Below, piece after piece: positions 1 to 56,282 of a DNA stretch of 64,000 nt. Each line of letters begins with the position of its first letter. Within the stretch, counting starts at the first letter, position 1. A model generated the notes under the pieces. It searched no databases. It saw only the letters and a program-made list of their open reading frames with translations, and was not told the origin of the DNA. Source of the DNA: Candidatus Latescibacter sp. GTDB taxonomy: Bacteria; Latescibacterota; Latescibacteria; Latescibacterales; Latescibacteraceae. The position numbers were made by a program, and so were the translations under genes. Where the stretch lies: positions 9,221-73,220 of the forward strand of contig JAUYCD010000109.1 of assembly GCA_030692375.1 (NCBI GenBank), written 5' to 3'.

Positions 1-1318
1 GGGCTGTGGTCAGGGTGGTCGCCAGGTATGAAGCTCCGTGAACGCCGAACAGGAATTCCTCGTTGATGATCCGCCCCTTCAGTTCCGGGAAGGGGCCGGT
101 TCCGTGGTTGACCGGGCTGATATTGGGCAGGACGAAACAGTCGGCGGCCTCTGCCATACGTAAAAGGAGGCGCTCCCAGGGCTGGCTGAGCTTGTCGAAG
201 CCAGCCCCGATCGAGAATATTTTCCCCCTCGATTCAGTCAACTTTTTCATGTGACGGAAATCATTCCCGCCGCCGTAACGGGCGGTGACCACCGGTTCGC
301 CGTCCACTGTGCCCTGTACGAGAAGGTCGCGCCGCCAGCCGTCCGCAGGCAGGCTGAGCTTGTCGCACTTCGACAAGCTCAGTGCTCGGCCGCTGGCTGA
401 GCCTGTCGAAGCCAGCTTGTCGAAGCCGCCGATCCGGGCGATCATGGTCCAGGTTCCCGCCTCCACCTGGATGACCGAATTTCCTGCAGCCTCCGGGAAA
501 GACTGGTAAAAGGTGGAAATGACCGGGATATGGGAAAGACTGGTGTCATGTCCCCCGGGAATGACTGTAACCGGGCAGGAGAGGCCGAATACGGCAGCCT
601 GTCCGGAGGGCATGAAAGCGAGCGGCCGATATACTACCGCTGTCTCACGGGGTATCAGGCGGCTGAATGATGACAGCTTGACAGCCAGGCTGCTCGGTGC
701 GCCGGGGCGCTCGCGGATGTTCCGTGCGCCGGAATGGCACATCCAGTAGCTGTGTTCGTTGCCTGCCTTTTTCACCGCGTACAGGTAGTTCTCGCCGATA
801 AAGTGCCCGGACATCAGGGCGCCGTAGGTTCCGAATCCCGCTGTTTTTTTCAGAAGTTCCGGGCGTTCCATCTCCTCGAAGAGGAGCCGCTTAATAAGGG
901 TGAGGCTCCCCGGAAAGTCGCGAATGGAGCCGGTTTCGAGAAAGAATTCTTCGGCGCTTCCGGCCAGTTCGCAGAACCGGTCTTCAACCGCATCGGGGTA
1001 TCTCTGCGTGTAAGACAGTGTCAAGCCCTCGCCCGGCGCTTCTACCAGCGTATTGTCGTACCCGACCAGCCCGCCGGACGCTCCCCTGGCCGCCGGTGCG
1101 ATGACCGCGCAATTTTTCATCTTTTCGGGCAGGGACCTTATGGTGGCATCGAACCAGGCGAACTCCTCCCCGGTGGCGTTATAGGCTAAATTATCCACCT
1201 GACGGACCGGTGTGGCTGCGCCCTGCGAATAGACGCTCTCGAGGGTCTCGAAATCGAACACCTCGAGTTTGATATTGGAGGCGCCGTCTACCGGCACGAT
1301 GATGGTTTTGAGGGGCAT
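1..1318 (-). CDS. FGGY-family carbohydrate kinase, rhamnulokinase/fuculokinase-like; 3' end runs off the window start
   Basis: Hand translation of the minus strand from the ATG at 1316-1318 gives MPLKTIIVPVDGASNIKLEVFD.. with no stop down to position 1. The VDGAS..K N-terminal and PGGHDTSLS motifs resemble the rhamnulokinase DLGASSGR and HDTASA signatures. It lies downstream of the rhamnosidase on the same strand. It is absent from the ORF track because the window truncates it. Confidence 0.5.
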   Translation of the reverse strand, partial: MPLKTIIVPVDGASNIKLEVFDFETLESVYSQGAATPVRQVDNLAYNATGEEFAWFDATIRSLPEKMKNCAVIAPAARGASGGLVGYDNTLVEAPGEGLTLSYTQRYPDAVEDRFCELAGSAEEFFLETGSIRDFPGSLTLIKRLLFEEMERPELLKKTAGFGTYGALMSGHFIGENYLYAVKKAGNEHSYWMCHSGARNIRERPGAPSSLAVKLSSFSRLIPRETAVVYRPLAFMPSGQAAVFGLSCPVTVIPGGHDTSLSHIPVISTFYQSFPEAAGNSVIQVEAGTWTMIARIGGFDKLASTGSASGRALSLSKCDKLSLPADGWRRDLLVQGTVDGEPVVTARYGGGNDFRHMKKLTESRGKIFSIGAGFDKLSQPWERLLLRMAEAADCFVLPNISPVNHGTGPFPELKGRIINEEFLFGVHGASYLATTLTTA

Positions 1319-1366: not shown

Positions 1367-1579
1367 TTACTTTTTTACTCTACTCACAAACCGGTAAATA
1401 CCAGATCCCACCGTATAAACGGCATACTCCCCTTCGTATTTTACGAACGTGACCCCCGGGGCTTTTTCCGCCGGCTGCCCTCCCTCTGTCACAGCGGCGC
1501 CTTCATCGGCTGGAACATAAACTGAGGCGGTGGTATTGGCGGGGATGGTAATTTCCAGAGTAAATTGAGCCTTTTGCAA
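1367..1579 (-). pseudogene. Displaced C-terminal fragment (about 70 aa) of GH78 alpha-L-rhamnosidase, separated from the gene body by a MITE
   Basis: The 70-aa ORF ..FTLEITIPANTTASVYVPADEG..EYAVYTVGSGIYRFVSRV matches the last beta-sandwich of rhamnosidases. It becomes in-frame with the upstream ORF once the 1563-1772 element is removed. Confidence 0.7.
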
Positions 1580-1772
1580 AAGTCGTGTTGTACTTAAAAA
1601 GAAAACGAGTTTTTTAACAACAGCCCCCTATCCCTCAATCTCTTTTCCCCTGTAGGGGGGCAAGGGAAGTCGTTGCTCAGCAGTCTGTTCCTGCCCCCTC
1701 CGGGAGAAGGATGTCCGAAGGACAGGAGGAGGGCTGTGTCAAACAATCTCGACTTTTGCAAAAGGCTCAATT
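1563..1772. mobile_element. MITE-like insertion of about 210 bp with 23-bp perfect terminal inverted repeats (aattgagccttttgcaaaagtcg / cgacttttgcaaaaggctcaatt) and GC-rich internal hairpins
   Basis: The TIRs were read directly at 1563-1585 and 1750-1772. The interior carries ccccctatccc..cccctgtagggggg hairpins. It sits inside the rhamnosidase reading frame. Confidence 0.75.
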
Positions 1773-4326
1773 GATTGAGTGATTTTGTCCAGGAACTTTG
1801 AATCAGTCCATGTATGGATTGGTATCTGGCCCGGGCATAGGTCAGTCCGCCTCCCGGAACGGGGCGGATGATGATGTGTTTGAAGCCGGGTTTTTCCGGG
1901 TCTAGGTCAATTCCGGCGACAGAGGAGTACAACCATTCACCCACCGATCCGAGAGAGTAGTGGTTGAATGAATTCATCCCCGGGTCCTGGAATCCCTTAT
2001 CCTCCGTCCAGCCGTCCCAGCGCTCCCAGATGGTGGTGGCGCCCTGCTTTATAGAATAACCCCAGGAGGGAAATGTGTCGTTGTTCAGAAGACGGTAAGC
2101 CACATCGGGGTATCCCATCCGAGTCAGCACCGGAGCGAGATGCCGCACACCGATGAATCCGGTGGAAAGATGCCAGCCCTTGCTGCGGATGTCTTCCACC
2201 AGATACTGCGCCGCCTTTACCCGAAGCTCTTCCGGCAGAAGGTCCATGTAGAGCGCCAGGAGATACCCGGTCTGGGTTTCACCTCTGATACGGCCTTCGG
2301 GGGACAGGTATTCCTTCTGGAATGCCGCCCTGATCTTCCGGAACAGGTCTTCATACCGGGCCGCATCGGAATCATTGTCGATGACGCGCGCCATCCTTGA
2401 CATGAGACGGGCGTCATAGGCCCAGTAGGCGGTAGCCAGAAGGTCTTTCGGGGTATTGGCTTTTATGGAAAGCCAGTCGCCGTAATTGTTGTTGAGCAGG
2501 TTCTTGCGGAGGTAATTGGGATTTCCGCCCTGGAGGTAGTCCATCCATCTCGCCATGGAGCGATAATGGTCTCCGATAATCTTTTTATCGCCGTACACCT
2601 GGTAGAATGTCCAGGGAACGATGATACCGGCGTCTCCCCAACCGGGGGCGCCGTCGCCTCCGAGGCCTTTGATGAACGGGCAGGTGTCTGTGAATGCGCC
2701 CTGCGGGGTCTGTTCATCCGCCACATCCTGCATCCACTTGGTGATGAAGGCGGCTGCATCGGCGTTATAAGTGGCGGTGCGGATGAATATCTGGGCGTCG
2801 CCCATCCAGCCCTGTCGTTCGTCACGCTGCGGGCAGTCGGTCGGGATGCTGATGAAATTGCTCATCTGGCCCCAGAGGATGTTGCTCACAAGCTTGTTTA
2901 CCATGGGATTTGAGCAATCGAAGGTTCCGATTTGCGGTGTTGTGGAGGTGATGACGCACCCGGTGAGGGCATCGAGCGCCGGTTTTCCCGGATAACCGGT
3001 AATCTCCACATACCGGAAGCCGTGGAAGGTGAAATGCGGCTCGTACATTTCCTGGCCGCCGCCGCGCAGGGTGTACCGGTCGATGGATCTGGCCCTCCGC
3101 AGGTTGGCGGTGTACAGGGAGCCGTCGGGATTGAGCATCTCGGCGAAACGCATAGTGACCGTTGTTCCCGACGGCCCCATCACCTTTAGCCTGGCCCAGC
3201 CGGCGAAATTCTGCCCCATGTCGAAGACAAATTCACCGGGCTTCGGTTCGGTCATTTTGACCGGCCGGAGTTCTTTGACAACCTGGACCGGCTCGGCATG
3301 CTGGGCTACCAGCGGGGCATCAGTTTTATCCATTACCGAGGCGTTTTCCCATACGGAATCATCAAACGCCGGACCGTCCCAGCCGGGAATTTCTTTCCTG
3401 GCGTCATAGGTTTCGCCAAGGAGCATGTCGGAATCGAGAATGGGGCCGAGAGAGCATTTCCAGGACGCATCGGTTGCCACCGTTTGTTCGGAGCCATCGG
3501 ATAACTCCAGGCGCAGTTCAGCCAGAAGGCCGTTCTGAACGCCGTAGTAATTTCTTATCATGATCCCCCCGATATACCCGCTGTACCAGCCGTCGCCCAC
3601 TATGGCGCCGATAGCGTTTTTCCCGGGACGGAGCATTCCGGTGATATCGTAGGCGCGGTACTGGATGCGTTTGGAGTAGTCAGTGTATTCTGGGGCGAGC
3701 ATGTCTTTTCCCACCCGTTTCCCATTGATATGAGCTTCAAACATTCCCCGGGCGGAGATATACAGCATGGCACGGCGCACAGATTTCTTCCCTGTATCGA
3801 ACGTTTTCCGGAAATACGGCGCCGGAGGGCCAGGTTTGGCGGTTTCCCCTTTTTTGGGGGGATCGGTCGGCTTCTGTATCTTAGATATCCATTGTGCATG
3901 CCAGTCCGAAGGTAAAAGAAGCCCCATACTCCAGAAAGCCGGCATGCTGTAAGGGGAAGGAATCCCGTTTTTGTCCCAGGCGCGGATTTTCCAGAAACAG
4001 GCCATACCGCTTTTGAGCGGCTTGCCCGCATAAGGAACAAGAGTTGATTGGTCAGAGGAAACCTTTCCGCTGTCCCAGAGATCGCCGGAGTTCTTGTCCA
4101 GATTTTTCCGGTCCGAAGCAACCAGAATCTGGTAAGCGGTCTGAATCTCTCCGCGCTCCGACGATCCAAGAATCCAGCTCAACCGCGGGTTGGAGGCGTC
4201 GATTCCAAGGGGATTTGTCAGGTATTCGCACCGGAGGTCGGCGGATTTGATTGCGCCATATCCCTGGCAGGCAGCGGTATAAAAGAATGTGAGGAGAAGT
4301 GCAGGGAAAACAACATGTCTTGTCAT
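1594..4326 (-). CDS. Alpha-L-rhamnosidase (GH78), interrupted near the 3' end; the ORF reads out of the gene into the MITE and terminates there
   Basis: The 933-aa ORF carries GH78 signatures (DCPQRDERQGWMGDAQIF, GWGDAGIIVPWTFYQVYGD, GDGWYSG). There is a signal peptide MTRHVVFPALLLTFFYTAAC after GAGG. The last 55 or so residues are element-derived garbage. Confidence 0.85.
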   Translation of the reverse strand: MTRHVVFPALLLTFFYTAACQGYGAIKSADLRCEYLTNPLGIDASNPRLSWILGSSERGEIQTAYQILVASDRKNLDKNSGDLWDSGKVSSDQSTLVPYAGKPLKSGMACFWKIRAWDKNGIPSPYSMPAFWSMGLLLPSDWHAQWISKIQKPTDPPKKGETAKPGPPAPYFRKTFDTGKKSVRRAMLYISARGMFEAHINGKRVGKDMLAPEYTDYSKRIQYRAYDITGMLRPGKNAIGAIVGDGWYSGYIGGIMIRNYYGVQNGLLAELRLELSDGSEQTVATDASWKCSLGPILDSDMLLGETYDARKEIPGWDGPAFDDSVWENASVMDKTDAPLVAQHAEPVQVVKELRPVKMTEPKPGEFVFDMGQNFAGWARLKVMGPSGTTVTMRFAEMLNPDGSLYTANLRRARSIDRYTLRGGGQEMYEPHFTFHGFRYVEITGYPGKPALDALTGCVITSTTPQIGTFDCSNPMVNKLVSNILWGQMSNFISIPTDCPQRDERQGWMGDAQIFIRTATYNADAAAFITKWMQDVADEQTPQGAFTDTCPFIKGLGGDGAPGWGDAGIIVPWTFYQVYGDKKIIGDHYRSMARWMDYLQGGNPNYLRKNLLNNNYGDWLSIKANTPKDLLATAYWAYDARLMSRMARVIDNDSDAARYEDLFRKIRAAFQKEYLSPEGRIRGETQTGYLLALYMDLLPEELRVKAAQYLVEDIRSKGWHLSTGFIGVRHLAPVLTRMGYPDVAYRLLNNDTFPSWGYSIKQGATTIWERWDGWTEDKGFQDPGMNSFNHYSLGSVGEWLYSSVAGIDLDPEKPGFKHIIIRPVPGGGLTYARARYQSIHGLIQSSWTKSLNQLSLLQKSRLFDTALLLSFGHPSPGGGRNRLLSNDFPCPPTGEKRLRDRGLLLKNSFSF

Positions 4327-4552
4327 GGTATTCATCCTCAAAAAGTGTATGTAATAGATGCCAAAACAGGATAGTATGACGTCAGTAAATATCATTGTTT
4401 AACGCCGAATCAATAGATGCCGAAACGGTTTTATCGTTCCCGCGAAGCGGCAACAAGTTCGGCATGACATGTTCATTTTGGGCAAAATCATAGGGCAGGC
4501 ACGGGGACCTGCCCCTACAATGTGCTCCAATTCTGTCTTCTGTCTTCTATCT

Positions 4553-6262: not shown

Positions 6263-6587
6263 TTACTCAATTAATGATGGTACGGCAAAAAGTCACAGTG
6301 AATGTTATTTTCAGAATGACAAGACAGTATTATATGTTTTATTGTGCATACTATACTATTGAAAACTCACCCCCTGACCCCCTCTCTTGAAAATAGAGGG
6401 GGAGAACCATCTGCTTCTTAAAATACGTATTATCAACAAAATAACTAACTCAAAGTCGTACCCCCTCTCTTATTAAGAGAGGGGATCAAGGGGTGAGTTA
6501 TCTCCAAAAAATGAGATTGTATAGTGTTCTAATGTCTTGATGAATATTTTCTGAATTCTTTTTTGCCGTATCATCAATTAATGATAG
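6263..6587. repeat. MITE-like element: imperfect 28-bp terminal inverted repeats (ttactcaattaatgatggtacggcaaaaagt / cttttttgccgtatcatcaattaatgatag) enclosing GC-rich hairpin repeats
   Basis: TIRs read at 6263-6292 and 6559-6587. Inside are ccccctctcttgaaaatagaggggg and ccctctcttattaagagagggg hairpins flanked by cacccc/ggggtgag. Confidence 0.5.
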
Positions 6588-24120: not shown

Positions 24121-24272
24121 AACTGTCTGAACCATGATTCGCTTGATTTCATGATTACCATGATTAGATGCCGAAACGAGTTCGGCATGACACGTGTCAC
24201 CCTGAACTTGTTTCAGGGTCATCATGGTAATCCTTGAATCCCATGAATCATGGTTCAGACAATCTGTGAGAA
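24121..24272. repeat. Nested palindromic compound element filling the pheS-pheT spacer
   Basis: Outer inverted repeat ctgtctgaaccatgattc/gaatcatggttcagacaatc, middle inverted repeat catgattaccatgat/atcatggtaatc, and a central gccgaaac..gttcggc-atgacacgtgtca-ccctgaac..gtttcaggg core. Confidence 0.75.
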
Positions 24273-24287
24273 AGGGTTGAATTTTTC

Positions 24288-26855
24288 ATGAAACTTTCGC
24301 TCGAATGGCTCGGACAGTATGTTGACCTTGCCGACCTTTCACCAAAAGATATCGCCTATAAACTGACCATGTCCACCGCTGAGGTCGAGGATGTGGAAAT
24401 ACTGAAACGCGCGGTGAAAGGGATTATAGCCGGAGAGATTATCGAGATTGAACCCATCGATACCGGCGACAGCGGCAAACTCATGCAGTATGTCACTGTG
24501 AACACCGGCGCGGAAACCTTCAAAACCGTTTGCGGCGCGCCCAATGTGAAACCGGGCATGAAATCCGCGTTCGCCGCCCCCGGCGCTGTCATCGCTGACA
24601 ATTTTTTAGTGCAGGAGCAAAAGGTCTTCGGCCTCATGAGCCGGGGAATCCTTTGCAGTCCGAAAGAGCTGGGCTGGGGCGAATCTCACGCCGGGATAAT
24701 TGCGTTTCCGGACAGTCTGCCAAAAGGAACCGAGCTTGCCTCCCTCGTTCCCGAATACGACCATGTCATCGAGATCGACAACAAGAGCATCACGCATCGC
24801 CCCGACCTCTGGGGTCATTACGGTTTCGCGCGGGAGATGGCCGCCATCTACGGGCGTAGTCTTAAACCGCTGGAGTTGATCGATGCTTCGGAAGGAAATG
24901 ACCTGCCTCCCTTCCCCCTGCGTATCGATGACCGTGAGGGCTGCCCTGGGTATTGCTGCCTGGAAATCGACGGCCTTTCTCCGGCTTTTTCGCCGGTGGA
25001 GATGCAGTACCGTCTCCTGGCGGTAGGTCTCCGGCCTATTAACCTGCTGGTAGACTTGACCAATTACCTGATGTGCGAGCTGGGGCAGCCCATGCACTCG
25101 TTCGACGGCGAGAGGGTGAGGGATATTATCGTTGCTCCCTTCGGAAAAATCGGCGCCTACCAGACACTGGACAGTGTGGAGCGGAAGATGATTCCCGAAG
25201 ACCTGATGATCTGCGACCATGACGGCCCCATTGCTCTGGCCGGTATCATGGGCGGCGAGGATTCGGAGGTAAAAGAGGGGACTTCACGGGTGCTTCTGGA
25301 AAGCGCCAATTTCAATCCCGCCCGCATCCGGAGGACCATGATCCGTCTCGGGCTGCGCACCGACGCCGGAGTCCGGTTTGAAAAGGGACAGCCGCCCTAT
25401 CACATGGCTCTTTCCATACGGCGTTTCGTTCATCTCCTCCGCGAGGCGGGGCAGAAAGCGAGGCTCCGCTCGCAGCTTACCTGCGGGGGTGATACCGGAG
25501 AAAAAGGCCGCCTTTTGTCCATGGATAAATCGGACCTGACTCGTTCCATCGGTATGGCGATCCCTGACGGGCGGGTGCGGAAGATTCTCGTTTCGCTCGG
25601 CTTCGAATGCACGATCAACGACAAGGAGATTCTCCTTGTTATCCCGCCGCACCGGAGTGCGAGGGACATTTCCATTCCCCGCGACATTGTCGAGGAGGTA
25701 GCCCGCATCTACGGCTACGACAATATTGTCCCGTCCATGCCTGATATGAAGATGCGGTCCGGTACATTTAATACCGAACTCCAGAAACAGCATAAAATCC
25801 GCCGATTCCTGAGCCAGGCTAAGGGATTTTCAGAGGTCCATACCTACAGTTGGTATGATGACATATGGCTCAAACGGATGGCATACAACCCGGGAGAGAC
25901 GCTGACCCTGGTGAATCCCGCCGCTGAGAACAACACCCGTATGCGCCGTGAGCTTATTCCGAACCTTTTGGAACTGGTGGAAATGAATGCGGTTCACCGC
26001 GACACTATCTCATTTTATGAAATAGGCAACGTGTTCCATCCCGCTCTTCGGCAGGCTCAGAGCCCACTGAACTCTGAGCTTGTCGAAGAGTCGAATGGTT
26101 TCCGGCAAGCCATGCATCTGGGAGGAGTGGTTTATCAAACGGAAAAAATCGGGAATCTCCAGGAACTTTTCCTGCGTGTAAAAGGGACTGTGGAGGAGAT
26201 ATGCGCATTTACGAATGCGGGGATTCCGGAATTCACCGCCTCGCACTCTTCGGCAGGCTCAGAGCCCACTGATCGAGCACTGAGCTTGTCGAATCGAGCA
26301 CTGAGCTTGTCGAATCAAGCACTGAGCTTGTCGAATCGAGCACTGAGCTTGTCGAAGTCCGCCAAACCCTGGACTGTACCAGGCTCTTATCTCAATATTC
26401 ATATTGGTGATTCCTCCGCAGGGCAGATCGGGTATCTTACAGGCAATCTTTTGAACCTTTACGAGCACTTAACGCAGATTGTCTGGTTCGAGCTCCTGGT
26501 GGATGTCCTGGCCGGGCCGACTTTCCCCGATGTATTGTATAGCGAGATACCGGTGTACCCCGGTTCCTGGATGGATTTCTCCGTTTTAGCGGATAAGAAT
26601 CTGAGCTATGCCGTTTTGGGGGAAAGCATAAGGAAGTTTACTCATCCGATTCTCCGAAAGGTAAAGTACCTGTATCTTTTCAGCGGAAATATTAAGGGGG
26701 GAGAAAAAGGCCTGCCGGAAGGCGAAAAAAAAATTTCCTATACATTCCGTTTCTGGCTCGGGCTGAAGGATAGAACTTTGACTGGAGATGATCTATCACA
26801 ATTTAGGGAGTTTTTCCTTCGCTATCTGGAAGAAAACGGACTTGCGCTAAGATAA
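24288..26855 (+). CDS. pheT: Phenylalanine--tRNA ligase beta subunit carrying in-frame repeat-element insertions
   Basis: Domain order is typical of PheT (N-terminal tRNA-binding, B3/B4, B5, C-terminal). At 855 aa it is about 50 aa longer than usual because of the repeat-encoded segments ..RQAQSPLNSELVEES.. and ..SHSSAGSEPTDRALSLSNRALSLSNQALSLSNRALSLSKS.. Confidence 0.93.
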   Translation: MKLSLEWLGQYVDLADLSPKDIAYKLTMSTAEVEDVEILKRAVKGIIAGEIIEIEPIDTGDSGKLMQYVTVNTGAETFKTVCGAPNVKPGMKSAFAAPGAVIADNFLVQEQKVFGLMSRGILCSPKELGWGESHAGIIAFPDSLPKGTELASLVPEYDHVIEIDNKSITHRPDLWGHYGFAREMAAIYGRSLKPLELIDASEGNDLPPFPLRIDDREGCPGYCCLEIDGLSPAFSPVEMQYRLLAVGLRPINLLVDLTNYLMCELGQPMHSFDGERVRDIIVAPFGKIGAYQTLDSVERKMIPEDLMICDHDGPIALAGIMGGEDSEVKEGTSRVLLESANFNPARIRRTMIRLGLRTDAGVRFEKGQPPYHMALSIRRFVHLLREAGQKARLRSQLTCGGDTGEKGRLLSMDKSDLTRSIGMAIPDGRVRKILVSLGFECTINDKEILLVIPPHRSARDISIPRDIVEEVARIYGYDNIVPSMPDMKMRSGTFNTELQKQHKIRRFLSQAKGFSEVHTYSWYDDIWLKRMAYNPGETLTLVNPAAENNTRMRRELIPNLLELVEMNAVHRDTISFYEIGNVFHPALRQAQSPLNSELVEESNGFRQAMHLGGVVYQTEKIGNLQELFLRVKGTVEEICAFTNAGIPEFTASHSSAGSEPTDRALSLSNRALSLSNQALSLSNRALSLSKSAKPWTVPGSYLNIHIGDSSAGQIGYLTGNLLNLYEHLTQIVWFELLVDVLAGPTFPDVLYSEIPVYPGSWMDFSVLADKNLSYAVLGESIRKFTHPILRKVKYLYLFSGNIKGGEKGLPEGEKKISYTFRFWLGLKDRTLTGDDLSQFREFFLRYLEENGLALR
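26262..26345 (+). repeat. Four tandem copies of the 21-nt unit cgagcactgagcttgtcgaat inside the pheT reading frame
   Basis: Read directly from the sequence. The same gagcttgtcgaa/ttcgacaagctc core recurs at 26072-26088, 186-200, 350-430 and 56106-56160. Confidence 0.85.
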
Positions 26856-26861
26856 AGACGG

Positions 26862-26925
26862 TTACCTCACCCCGGCCCTCTCCTAATTAGGAGAGGGTGC
26901 CCGAAGGGCGGGTGAGGTTTTAGGT
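26862..26925. repeat. cctcaccc..ccctctcctaattaggagaggg..gggtgagg palindromic element after pheT
   Basis: Same family as 37036-37140, 40228-40345 and 48150-48270. Confidence 0.7.
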
Positions 26926-35556: not shown

Positions 35557-35628
35557 ATTTAGATCCTGAAACGAGTTCAGGATGACACGTGTCATGCCGA
35601 ACTTGTTTCGGCATCTATTCCAGGATCA
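35557..35628. repeat. Palindromic element agatcctgaaacgagttcagg-atgacacgtgtcat-gccgaacttgtttcggcatct
   Basis: Near-identical copies occur at 49680-49745 and, split by another repeat, at 56078-56190. A partial copy forms the 5' end of the 58320 gene. Confidence 0.8.
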
Positions 35629-36959: not shown

Positions 36960-37035
36960 AAACAAAGAAGGTAAAGACTGTCTGAACCACTGATAAAAAA
37001 GTATTGTTTACATTATTTTCTGGTGCTTCTATACC

Positions 37036-37140
37036 TCACCCCCTGTCCCCCTCTCCTAGTCAGGAGAGGGGGTAACTCGCGGCGGGCCATGTTATTACCC
37101 TCTCCTAATTAGGAGAGGGTGGCTGAAAGCCGGGTGAGGT
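37036..37140. repeat. Compound palindromic element: cctcaccc outer inverted repeats with cccctctcctagtcaggagagggg and ccctctcctaattaggagaggg hairpins
   Basis: Read directly from the sequence; it lies after glyA. Confidence 0.8.
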
Positions 37141-37162
37141 TTTTCTTCGAAGGGGAAGAACA

Positions 37163-40148: not shown

Positions 40149-40227
40149 TCGTTTGGAATGGGGTGTTTTGCGAATTGAAAATATGATGATGTGGCAAAAA
40201 GTGTTGCAAAGTCTTCAATTCTGTCGA

Positions 40228-40345
40228 AACCTCACCCGGCCTTTGGCCACCCTCTCCTAGACAGGAGAGGGTAAAGACTTGGCTCGCCGTGAGTTACCCC
40301 CTCTCCTGACTAGGAGAGAGGGATAGGGGGTGAGGTTTATAAAGC
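40228..40345. repeat. Compound palindromic element of the ctcaccc/ccctctcctag.caggagaggg family
   Basis: Read directly from the sequence; it lies after the PNP gene. Confidence 0.8.
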
Positions 40346-42425: not shown

Positions 42426-42599
42426 AGATATCCCCCTGTCCTACGGACATCCCCCTTGCTAAGGGGGACAAAAGATTATAGACGAAAAAGCTCTTTTAAC
42501 CCCCTTCGATAAGGGGGTCGGCGCAAAGCGCCGGAGGGATCAAAAACGCAGGAAAAAAATATTGACATTATCATAGCCGGCGCCGGTCCTGCCGGGCTC

Positions 42600-48098: not shown

Positions 48099-48149
48099 AA
48101 GAAAGATACAATTCTCACTAGGGGGCGCTCATACACCCTTCTTCACTGT

Positions 48150-48270
48150 TTTAAACCACACCCCCTGTCCCCCTCTCCTAGTCAGGAGAGGGGGGTAACT
48201 CTTTACGTGCCACATCTTTACCCTCTCCTAATTAGGAGAGGGTGGCCGAAGGCCGGGTGAGGTTTTATCG
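48150..48270. repeat. Compound palindromic element, near-identical to 37036-37140
   Basis: acaccccctgtccccctctcctagtcaggagagggggg..ccctctcctaattaggagagggtggccgaaggccgggtgaggtt. Confidence 0.8.
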
Positions 48271-49679: not shown

Positions 49680-49745
49680 TTGCTTCGATTTAGATCCTGA
49701 AACAAGTTCAGGATGACACGTGTCATGCCGAACTTGTTTCGGCAT
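49680..49745. repeat. Palindromic cctgaaac/gccgaac element, copy of 35557-35628
   Basis: tttagatcctgaaacaagttcaggatgacacgtgtcatgccgaacttgtttcggcatctat. Confidence 0.8.
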
Positions 49746-49919
49746 CTATAAACGATCACAAATCAGATCGCGAACCTTGTCGAATGGTAAGATAGTAAAA
49801 ATGTAAAATGACCCTTCAACTCGTCAGTATGATTTCAATATCACTCACCGAAGGCGCTTCTGATGCAATGCGCACCAGACAGCCTCATGCTGCTTGACAT
49901 TCATTTTGGAGTATACTCA

Positions 49920-56015: not shown

Positions 56016-56077
56016 TTATTTCGTCTTTTCAAACCACTATATATGACGACATAATTATTGCTCATGTTTTGAGTGAT

Positions 56078-56282
56078 TAGATCCTGAAACGAGTTCAGGA
56101 TGACACGTGCACTTCGACAAGCTCAGTGCTCGGTCAGCGGACTCAGAGCCTGTCGAAGAGTCCGCTACATCCTGAACTCGTTTCAGGATCTAATTTTAAA
56201 TCACGGCACAATATTTTTAAATTCAAAAGAAGCAACTATTCTTTTCCCCTCGCCCGCTTACGGGAGAGGGGGCAGGGGGTGA
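56078..56282. repeat. Composite element: a cctgaaac palindrome split by a ttcgacaagctcagtgctcgg..gagcctgtcgaag unit, followed by a cccctcgcccgcttacgggagagggggcagggggtgagg hairpin
   Basis: Read directly from the sequence. It links the pheT-internal repeat family with the intergenic palindromes. Confidence 0.75.

Follow-up and report, generated by a model that had tools for sequence, protein, structure and literature searches.

A probable miniature inverted-repeat element with IS1182/ISUnCu17-like ends interrupts a GH78 rhamnosidase gene of Candidatus Latescibacter

The window analysed here is a stretch of 64,000 nucleotides from Candidatus Latescibacter sp. (assembly GCA_030692375.1, contig JAUYCD010000109.1, positions 9,221 to 73,220 of the forward strand). 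A gene for an alpha-L-rhamnosidase of glycoside hydrolase family 78 (GH78), located on its minus strand, is broken within the last 7% of its length. The lesion is very probably the result of the insertion of a 202-bp miniature inverted-repeat transposable element (MITE) with IS1182/ISUnCu17-like ends into the 3' end of the gene at an AATT site, which was duplicated. The original prediction had already called the element a MITE, and this assignment stands: the element is short, encodes no transposase, has perfect terminal inverted repeats (TIRs) and a target-site duplication, is present in multiple copies in a related genome, and has ends in common with autonomous insertion sequences (ISs).

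The element and its target site

Positions 1563-1772 of the window read AATT-GAGCCTTTTGCAAAAGTCG ... CGACTTTTGCAAAAGGCTC-AATT. An inverted repeat, aattgagccttttgcaaaagtcg, occupies 1563-1585 and its exact reverse complement 1750-1772. This segment had been described as a 210-bp element bounded by 23-bp TIRs. The repeats and the sequence were correctly read, but the extents need revision. Because AATT is its own reverse complement, it is easily mistaken for a part of the TIR. Since other copies with GAGCC...GGCTC ends are flanked by differing 4-bp repeats, the AATT is the target-site duplication and the TIR is 19 bp long. The element proper thus comprises 202 bp (1567-1768) and the rest of the 210 bp is the AATT duplication. 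The gene has gained 206 bp when the duplication is included.

The first copy of the duplicated AATT is located at 1563-1566 and is followed by the left TIR GAGCCTTTTGCAAAAGTCG at 1567-1585 (plus strand), the interior at 1586-1749, the right TIR CGACTTTTGCAAAAGGCTC at 1750-1768 (minus strand), which includes the 12-bp palindrome CTTTTGCAAAAG, and the second AATT at 1769-1772. The TIRs match perfectly (19/19 bp). The interior holds no transposase-sized open reading frame (ORF), and all six frames of the 202 bp give only short, stop-interrupted peptides. With up to three mismatches allowed, the 19-nt core GAGCCTTTTGCAAAAGTCG was found at these two sites only in the 64 kb, against an expected number of 0.04, and two matches did not occur in any of 100 shuffles.

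Related elements elsewhere have the same arrangement. Direct repeats of 4 bp were assessed wherever a second, inverted end was present within 2.5 kb of the first. GAGCC...GGCTC ends flanked by perfect 4-bp direct repeats were found in 24 of the 28 other elements checked, and the repeats varied by copy (ATAT, TACT, TAAA, TAAT, TCCT, CTCT, ATAG, TCAT, CGCC, AGCA and others).

The interrupted rhamnosidase gene

The 5' part of the gene extends on the minus strand from a probable start, MTRHVV.., at 4326 to ..SSWTKSLNQ at 1769. It is contained in a 933-aa ORF (1594-4395, minus strand) in which GH78 sequence ends after ...SSWTKSLNQ, at residue 875 (852 from the likely start). Translation leaves GH78 sequence at this point, reads through 58 unrelated residues that are encoded by the element and terminate the ORF, and stops inside the element at a premature stop codon (1594-1596, minus strand). 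The orphaned 3' part of the gene (1367-1566, minus strand) encodes (Q)FTLEITIPANTTASVYVP...GSGIYRFVSRVKK followed by the stop codon, and represents the second half of the C-terminal beta-sandwich. It is contained in a 70-aa ORF (1367-1579, minus strand) that opens with a TTG inside the TIR, continues with FTLEITIPANTTASVYVP...GSGIYRFVSRVKK from its sixth residue and ends in GSGIYRF. In total the last 65 residues of the enzyme, about half of the beta-sandwich, are orphaned. These coordinates match the original prediction, in which the ORF left the family after ..SSWTKSLNQ and the C-terminus was placed in a separate 70-aa ORF. It had also stated that removing the element while keeping one AATT restores the frame. 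Deletion of 1567-1772 indeed gave a single frame of 940 codons, reading ...KSLNQFTLEITIP..., or 917 codons when counted from MTRHVV. The reconstructed empty site is ...AAATCACTCAATCAATTTACTCTGGAAATT....

The 933-codon ORF is longer than the gene at its 5' end; translation probably begins at the Met of MTRHVVFPALLLTFFYTAAC (4326), and NCBI uses this start as well. The N-terminus is reminiscent of a secretion signal or of that of a lipoprotein; ..GC is found at the corresponding position in homologues.

The restored protein has five Pfam domains: Ig_Rha78A_N, Bac_rhamnosid_N, Bac_rhamnosid, Bac_rhamnosid6H (E = 4e-128) and Bac_rhamnosid_C. The last model, of 78 positions, is matched at positions 3-74 by the restored protein. 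The 5' part carries the first four domains and positions 3-48 of Bac_rhamnosid_C, and the orphan fragment matches positions 43-75 (E = 5e-6). The break thus falls at about position 48 of 78, in the middle of the beta-sandwich. Comparison of the restored protein with the crystal structures 3W5M (E = 2.5e-280) and 6I60 gave alignments that were collinear through the junction with no insertion or deletion, ..SLNQ|FTLEITIPANTTASV being placed opposite ..rsgg|FVLTCSVPPNTTAEV of 3W5M and ..tenI|FSMRISVPVNSEGEV of 6I60. Twelve database homologues, 47-61% identical over the segment, have no gap at the junction, and the residues that are invariant in this segment (P, N, A, P, E, G, Y and F) are all kept in the orphan fragment. 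A complete C-terminal domain is present in all of the 120 homologues listed, which are about 880-1090 aa long, except in the window's own protein. The possibility that rhamnosidases of this kind naturally end at ..LNQ does not hold, because the homologues continue without a gap across the junction and the 70-aa ORF matches the GH78 C-terminus.

The interrupted ORF is itself present in the protein database. A protein of 910 aa (P0001), annotated by NCBI as 'family 78 glycoside hydrolase catalytic domain' of Candidatus Latescibacter sp., is 100% identical over 93% of the query and starts at the Met at 4326. Its identity to the interrupted ORF shows that the deposited assembly includes the insertion, and the annotation there does not flag the disruption; the 58-residue tail of the protein is transposon-encoded junk. 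With the next homologue at 64% identity, the protein database contains no intact allele.

An assembly artefact, in which assembly or binning of the metagenome misjoined a repeat to the gene, is a very improbable explanation of this structure. It would fit with the source, which is a metagenome-assembled genome (MAG), and with the repetitive nature of the element family, several copies of which lie at contig ends in a related MAG; furthermore, no independent sequence of the locus was found in the protein database or in JGI contigs. A misjoin would, however, not yield a perfect 4-bp duplication or restore the frame exactly when removed, and the structure is the same as that of the 24 other insertions of elements with these ends.

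The likeliest outcome of a transposon insertion at this position is loss or strong impairment of enzyme function, which we consider probable from the sequence. The truncated product retains the catalytic (alpha/alpha)6 domain, and the 5' part carries both catalytic-glutamate motifs (QRDERQ and WERWD). RDER and WERWD were aligned opposite rdERl (636) and wERwd (895) of 3W5M; E636 and E895 of this enzyme, SaRha78A, are the catalytic acid and base glutamates. The break lies downstream of every catalytic residue, which is a point against inactivation. One could thus suppose that the truncated enzyme is functional and not a knockout, either because the 58-residue tail is tolerated or because a translated product of the 70-aa ORF complements the truncated enzyme. 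In favor of this, the catalytic-domain Pfam models are matched at full length, the insertion affects only the last part of the gene, and the orphan fragment keeps an in-frame TTG start. The supposition is nevertheless unlikely to be correct: the domain that is broken here halfway through its beta-sandwich is complete in every other listed homologue, invariant residues lie within the lost part, and the TTG has no Shine-Dalgarno-like or other purine-rich sequence upstream, where CTCGTTTTCTTTTTAAGTACAACACGACTT is found. Most likely, the truncated enzyme would be destabilized or inactive. Inventories of carbohydrate-active enzymes would over-count one probably dead rhamnosidase in this Latescibacter MAG, because the broken gene is annotated as a normal 910-aa GH78 protein.

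In evolutionary terms the insertion seems to be recent: neither the TIRs nor the duplication contain a mismatch, and the two gene fragments show no further lesions and keep every family-invariant residue. The lack of lesions is weak evidence of recency, given the short length of the orphan fragment (about 200 bp). An FGGY-like sugar-kinase gene (ORF 2-1318, minus strand) is located 49 bp downstream of the GH78 stop codon on the same strand, and a permease-like gene precedes the GH78 gene. A polar effect of the insertion on downstream genes is possible. No terminator-like site was predicted within the element, and neither a sigma-70-like promoter nor an intrinsic terminator was found in 1200-2000. 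As a genetic event this appears to be an ordinary insertion mutation by a well-known kind of element, and it bears on no open question.

Related elements and partner insertion sequences

An exact scan with the 19-mer of 185,579 species-representative genomes gave 54 loci. A Latescibacterota MAG (JBAYHX, isolate SO_2016_GW1_16) contains at least 12 complete copies of 198-229 bp that are 69-85% identical to the window copy and each have their own 4-bp duplication; several others in this MAG are partial and lie at contig ends. A few more fragments, with 88-92% identity, came from a scan of metagenomes. In an alignment of 13 copies the TIRs and the GC-rich core, which consists of three or four stacked hairpins, were almost invariant and the AT-rich subterminal parts were variable. 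The single TIR match in a complete Latescibacterota chromosome was rejected as an element; it has no partner end and no transposase and looks like a chance or solo match.

At fixed points in their interior, some MITE copies contain an additional hairpin unit of either 23 bp (CCGCTTTGCGGGAACTTCGTTTA) or 28 bp (GCTGCTTCGCAGGCACGATAAAGATGTG). This was seen when copies L019, L005 (1126-1349), L009 and L052 were compared with the other MITE copies. Apart from these units, the copies concerned fall into different subfamilies, which means either gain and loss of modules or recombination between copies.

The other Latescibacterota copies lie mostly outside long ORFs, so the genic insertion in the window is exceptional for the family. 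None of 12 such copies splits a long ORF in the manner of the window copy and most have fewer than 50 codons on one side, whereas in the window copy the stop-free frame across the empty site has 875 codons on one side and 66 on the other.

The ends of the MITE are also found on transposase-encoding elements. An IS of 1361 bp in MAG MFD03726.bin.2.170 (locus L042, 1622-2982) has the identical 19-mer as its left end and the first 15 nt thereof as its right end. Its target-site duplication is AGCA (4 bp), and its one ORF encodes 366 aa with the Pfam domains DDE_Tnp_1 and DUF772. It comes from a different organism and has no similarity to the interior of the MITE beyond the TIR. At least nine copies are present in the loci examined. 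This IS was repeatedly found in one repeat context, in contrast to the MITE, which is inserted at varied AT-rich 4-mers. In loci L002, L021, L027, L042, L044 and L001 the context is constant, ggcgatacAGCA|IS|AGCAggtttgga, and because it is always the same the IS targets another repeated sequence. Two head-to-tail dimers of the IS with one AGCA in common were also observed, and several copies have frameshifts in the transposase gene.

The 366-aa transposase has more than 8000 relatives in the protein database, typically encoded on contigs of 1.3-1.8 kb. Relatives on plasmids, identified by tblastn with 43-49% identity over at least 94% of the query, are labeled 'IS1182 family' or 'IS1182-like element ISUnCu17 family transposase' by the NCBI Prokaryotic Genome Annotation Pipeline (PGAP). 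ISUnCu17 itself, on the Aeromonas caviae plasmid NZ_AP026405.1, is a 1483-bp element with ends GAGCCTCTTGCAAAAGGCG and GAGCTTCTTGCAAAACTCT and an ATGA duplication. Its transposase is 44.7% identical to that of the IS carrying the exact MITE TIR, its left and right ends match the MITE TIR at 17/19 and 15/19 positions, and the duplication is 4 bp in both. ISUnCu17 is otherwise an autonomous element of Gammaproteobacteria, whereas the 202-bp window element has no ORF and nothing in common with it beyond the ends. Three further relatives of 1350-1383 bp, with transposases that are 64-66% identical, have ends GAGCCAATTGCAAAACTC and GAGGCGATTGCAAAACTCG and a 4-bp duplication, which is clean in two cases (TCGG and ACCT) and ambiguous in the third. 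Because they are common to these ISs, GAGSC..TTGCAAAA ends with a 4-bp duplication form the signature of one IS clade that is also found on the window element.

The 19-bp ends of the MITE are the recognition ends of a clade of 1.35-1.48-kb ISs that encode, in a single ORF, a DDE transposase of about 365 aa (DDE_Tnp_1 and DUF772). A transposase of this kind, presumably encoded elsewhere in the genome and acting in trans, would excise the element at its GAGCC termini and integrate it through a 4-bp staggered cut.

Several results weigh against parts of this reading. The 64-kb window contains a single copy of the element, and a cognate transposase was absent from the window and from the Latescibacterota loci examined (tblastn with the L042 transposase), for which reason mobilization in trans in this genome is presumptive. 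The empty-site allele was not found in the protein database or, using the exact junction 24-mer, in JGI metagenome contigs. The 366-aa transposase scored below the NCBIfam cut-offs: the IS1182 model gave 83.5 bits (cut-off 270) in three partial stretches, and the best IS5 model, IS5_4, gave 55.6 bits (cut-off 140). Since these cut-offs are not reached, the IS family name rests on the PGAP labels of proteins that are 43-49% identical. A scan for a parent IS in Latescibacterota, using the TIR plus three subterminal bases, returned MITE copies only, mostly from JBAYHX contigs.

The IS5 subgroup of the IS5 family, as listed in the ISfinder tables, has a length of 1.0-1.5 kb, a 4-bp duplication and ends starting with Ga/g. 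The partner IS resembles the IS5 family in length, 4-bp duplication, GAG terminus and the combination of DUF772 and DDE_Tnp_1, but its transposase scores higher on the IS1182 model and PGAP names its relatives as IS1182 family.

Bacterial MITEs such as Correia/NEMIS in Neisseria, RUP in Streptococcus pneumoniae and MITEAba12 in Acinetobacter are about 100-400 bp long. They have TIRs like those of a resident IS family, a target-site duplication of fixed length and no transposase; they are multi-copy, mostly intergenic, strongly self-complementary and occasionally gene-disrupting. The window element is like these three in its shortness, TIRs, fixed-length duplication, self-complementarity and lack of a transposase. 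It differs in having an ISUnCu17/IS1182-like partner instead of an IS630-, IS30- or IS5-like one, and in its host, which belongs to the candidate phylum Latescibacterota. In the literature searched, no paper contained the TIR string or the name ISUnCu17, and nothing relevant was found on IS1182 in connection with MITEs or on C-terminal truncation of GH78 enzymes. The element thus appears to represent a new MITE sequence family with a likely partner IS clade in a candidate phylum without cultured members. The 19-bp end together with the 4-bp duplication would provide a simple masking signature for the annotation of MAGs.

Hairpins in the element and in the window

The interior of the element consists of an AT-rich subterminal stretch (1586-1619, 24% GC) and a core of stacked, GC-rich hairpins (about 1620-1735, 60% GC). 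As single-stranded DNA the element is predicted to fold with -53.4 kcal/mol (z = -7.9). Such a stable fold, and a core that is more conserved than the subterminal parts, would also be expected of a structured RNA, an intron or a regulatory hairpin cassette that belongs to the gene and is not transposable. This is an extremely improbable interpretation. No Rfam family or intron matched the region at the gathering threshold or at E <= 1, and RNAalifold analysis of 13 copies gave a compensatory change in only 1 of 53 predicted pairs, the pairs being invariant (covariation term +0.98). Pairs without covariation and the lack of an Rfam match give no pointer to a selected RNA. Furthermore, copies occur at unrelated loci with duplications, the ends are those of transposase-encoding ISs, and homologues of the enzyme carry nothing at the junction position. 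A transposable element remains the preferred explanation.

According to the original prediction the element contains the same GC-hairpin modules that are found intergenically elsewhere in the window. This holds for one 17-nt module of the MITE core, GGATGTCCGNAGGACAG, which recurs at 42436-42452 on the minus strand as GGATGTCCGTAGGACAG within an intergenic hairpin array that has no TIRs; 0.03 chance matches were expected. A 13-mer of the interior also recurs at 40318-40330. When the interior was compared by BLAST with the hairpin families D1, D2, D5, D7, D9, D10 and D20 of the window, nothing significant was found beyond this 17/18-nt match and the 13-mer. The claim is therefore only weakly supported, and the interior is not the same as the abundant intergenic hairpin families. 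The architecture of stacked short GC-hairpins is alike, and on the basis of sequence common ancestry is shown for one module only.

Short elements with the same ends and unrelated interiors were found in Lentisphaeria, Victivallales, Chthonomonadaceae, Desulfocapsa, Desulfuromusa, Syntrophus and other MAGs. A wider and rather doubtful reading is that MITE families across phyla combine a nearly invariant, internally palindromic end of the ISUnCu17-like clade, GAGCCTTTTGCAAAAG, with lineage-specific GC-hairpin cargo that is modular in Latescibacter. It would span Latescibacterota, Lentisphaeria/Victivallales, Chthonomonadaceae, Desulfobacterota-type lineages and Pseudomonadota. The MITEs may then capture or seed modules of the host that resemble repetitive extragenic palindromic (REP) sequences; a hint of this is that one module is shared with the TIR-less intergenic array and that the cargo is modular. 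In-frame hairpin repeats are also tolerated by this genome within pheT.

Several distinct families of nested, GC-rich hairpin repeats are present in the window, mostly in intergenic clusters and never with the TIRs of the MITE. These intergenic families are REP-like elements. One type has the form CTCACCCC..CCCTCTCC-loop-GGAGAGGG..GGGTGAG and another the form GATGCCGAAAC..GTTCGGCATGACACGTGTCA. Sites include 6358-6500, 24162-24223, 26846-26921, 35557-35618, 37027-37143, 40227-40342, 48149-48266, 49688-49749 and 56075-56200.

The most interesting observations were incidental and concern hairpin repeats that are in frame within genes. In the FGGY-like kinase ORF the hairpin module CTGAGCTTGTCGAA, also the one seen in pheT, occurs at 181-205, 349-373, 365-389 and 392-416 and is translated as ..GFDKLASTGSASGRALSLSKCDKLS.. 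and ..GAGFDKLSQPW... A 14-mer of this module has 10 matches in the window against 0.01 expected, and a weak alignment of the kinase with the structure 3H6E (E = 0.5) has a 17-residue gap opposite the first repeat block. In pheT (24288-26855, plus strand) four tandem 21-bp copies of TCGAGCACTGAGCTTGTCGAA are in frame at 26272-26376 and are translated as ..DRALSLSNRALSLSNQALSLSNRALSLSKS... The Pfam core-domain match of PheT takes up 256 residues for 212 model positions, and alignments with PheT chains in the PDB are interrupted near the repeats, where the query is longer by about 48 residues. The pattern resembles an insertion of palindromic repeats, in frame, into an essential gene, as is seen with the Rickettsia palindromic elements.

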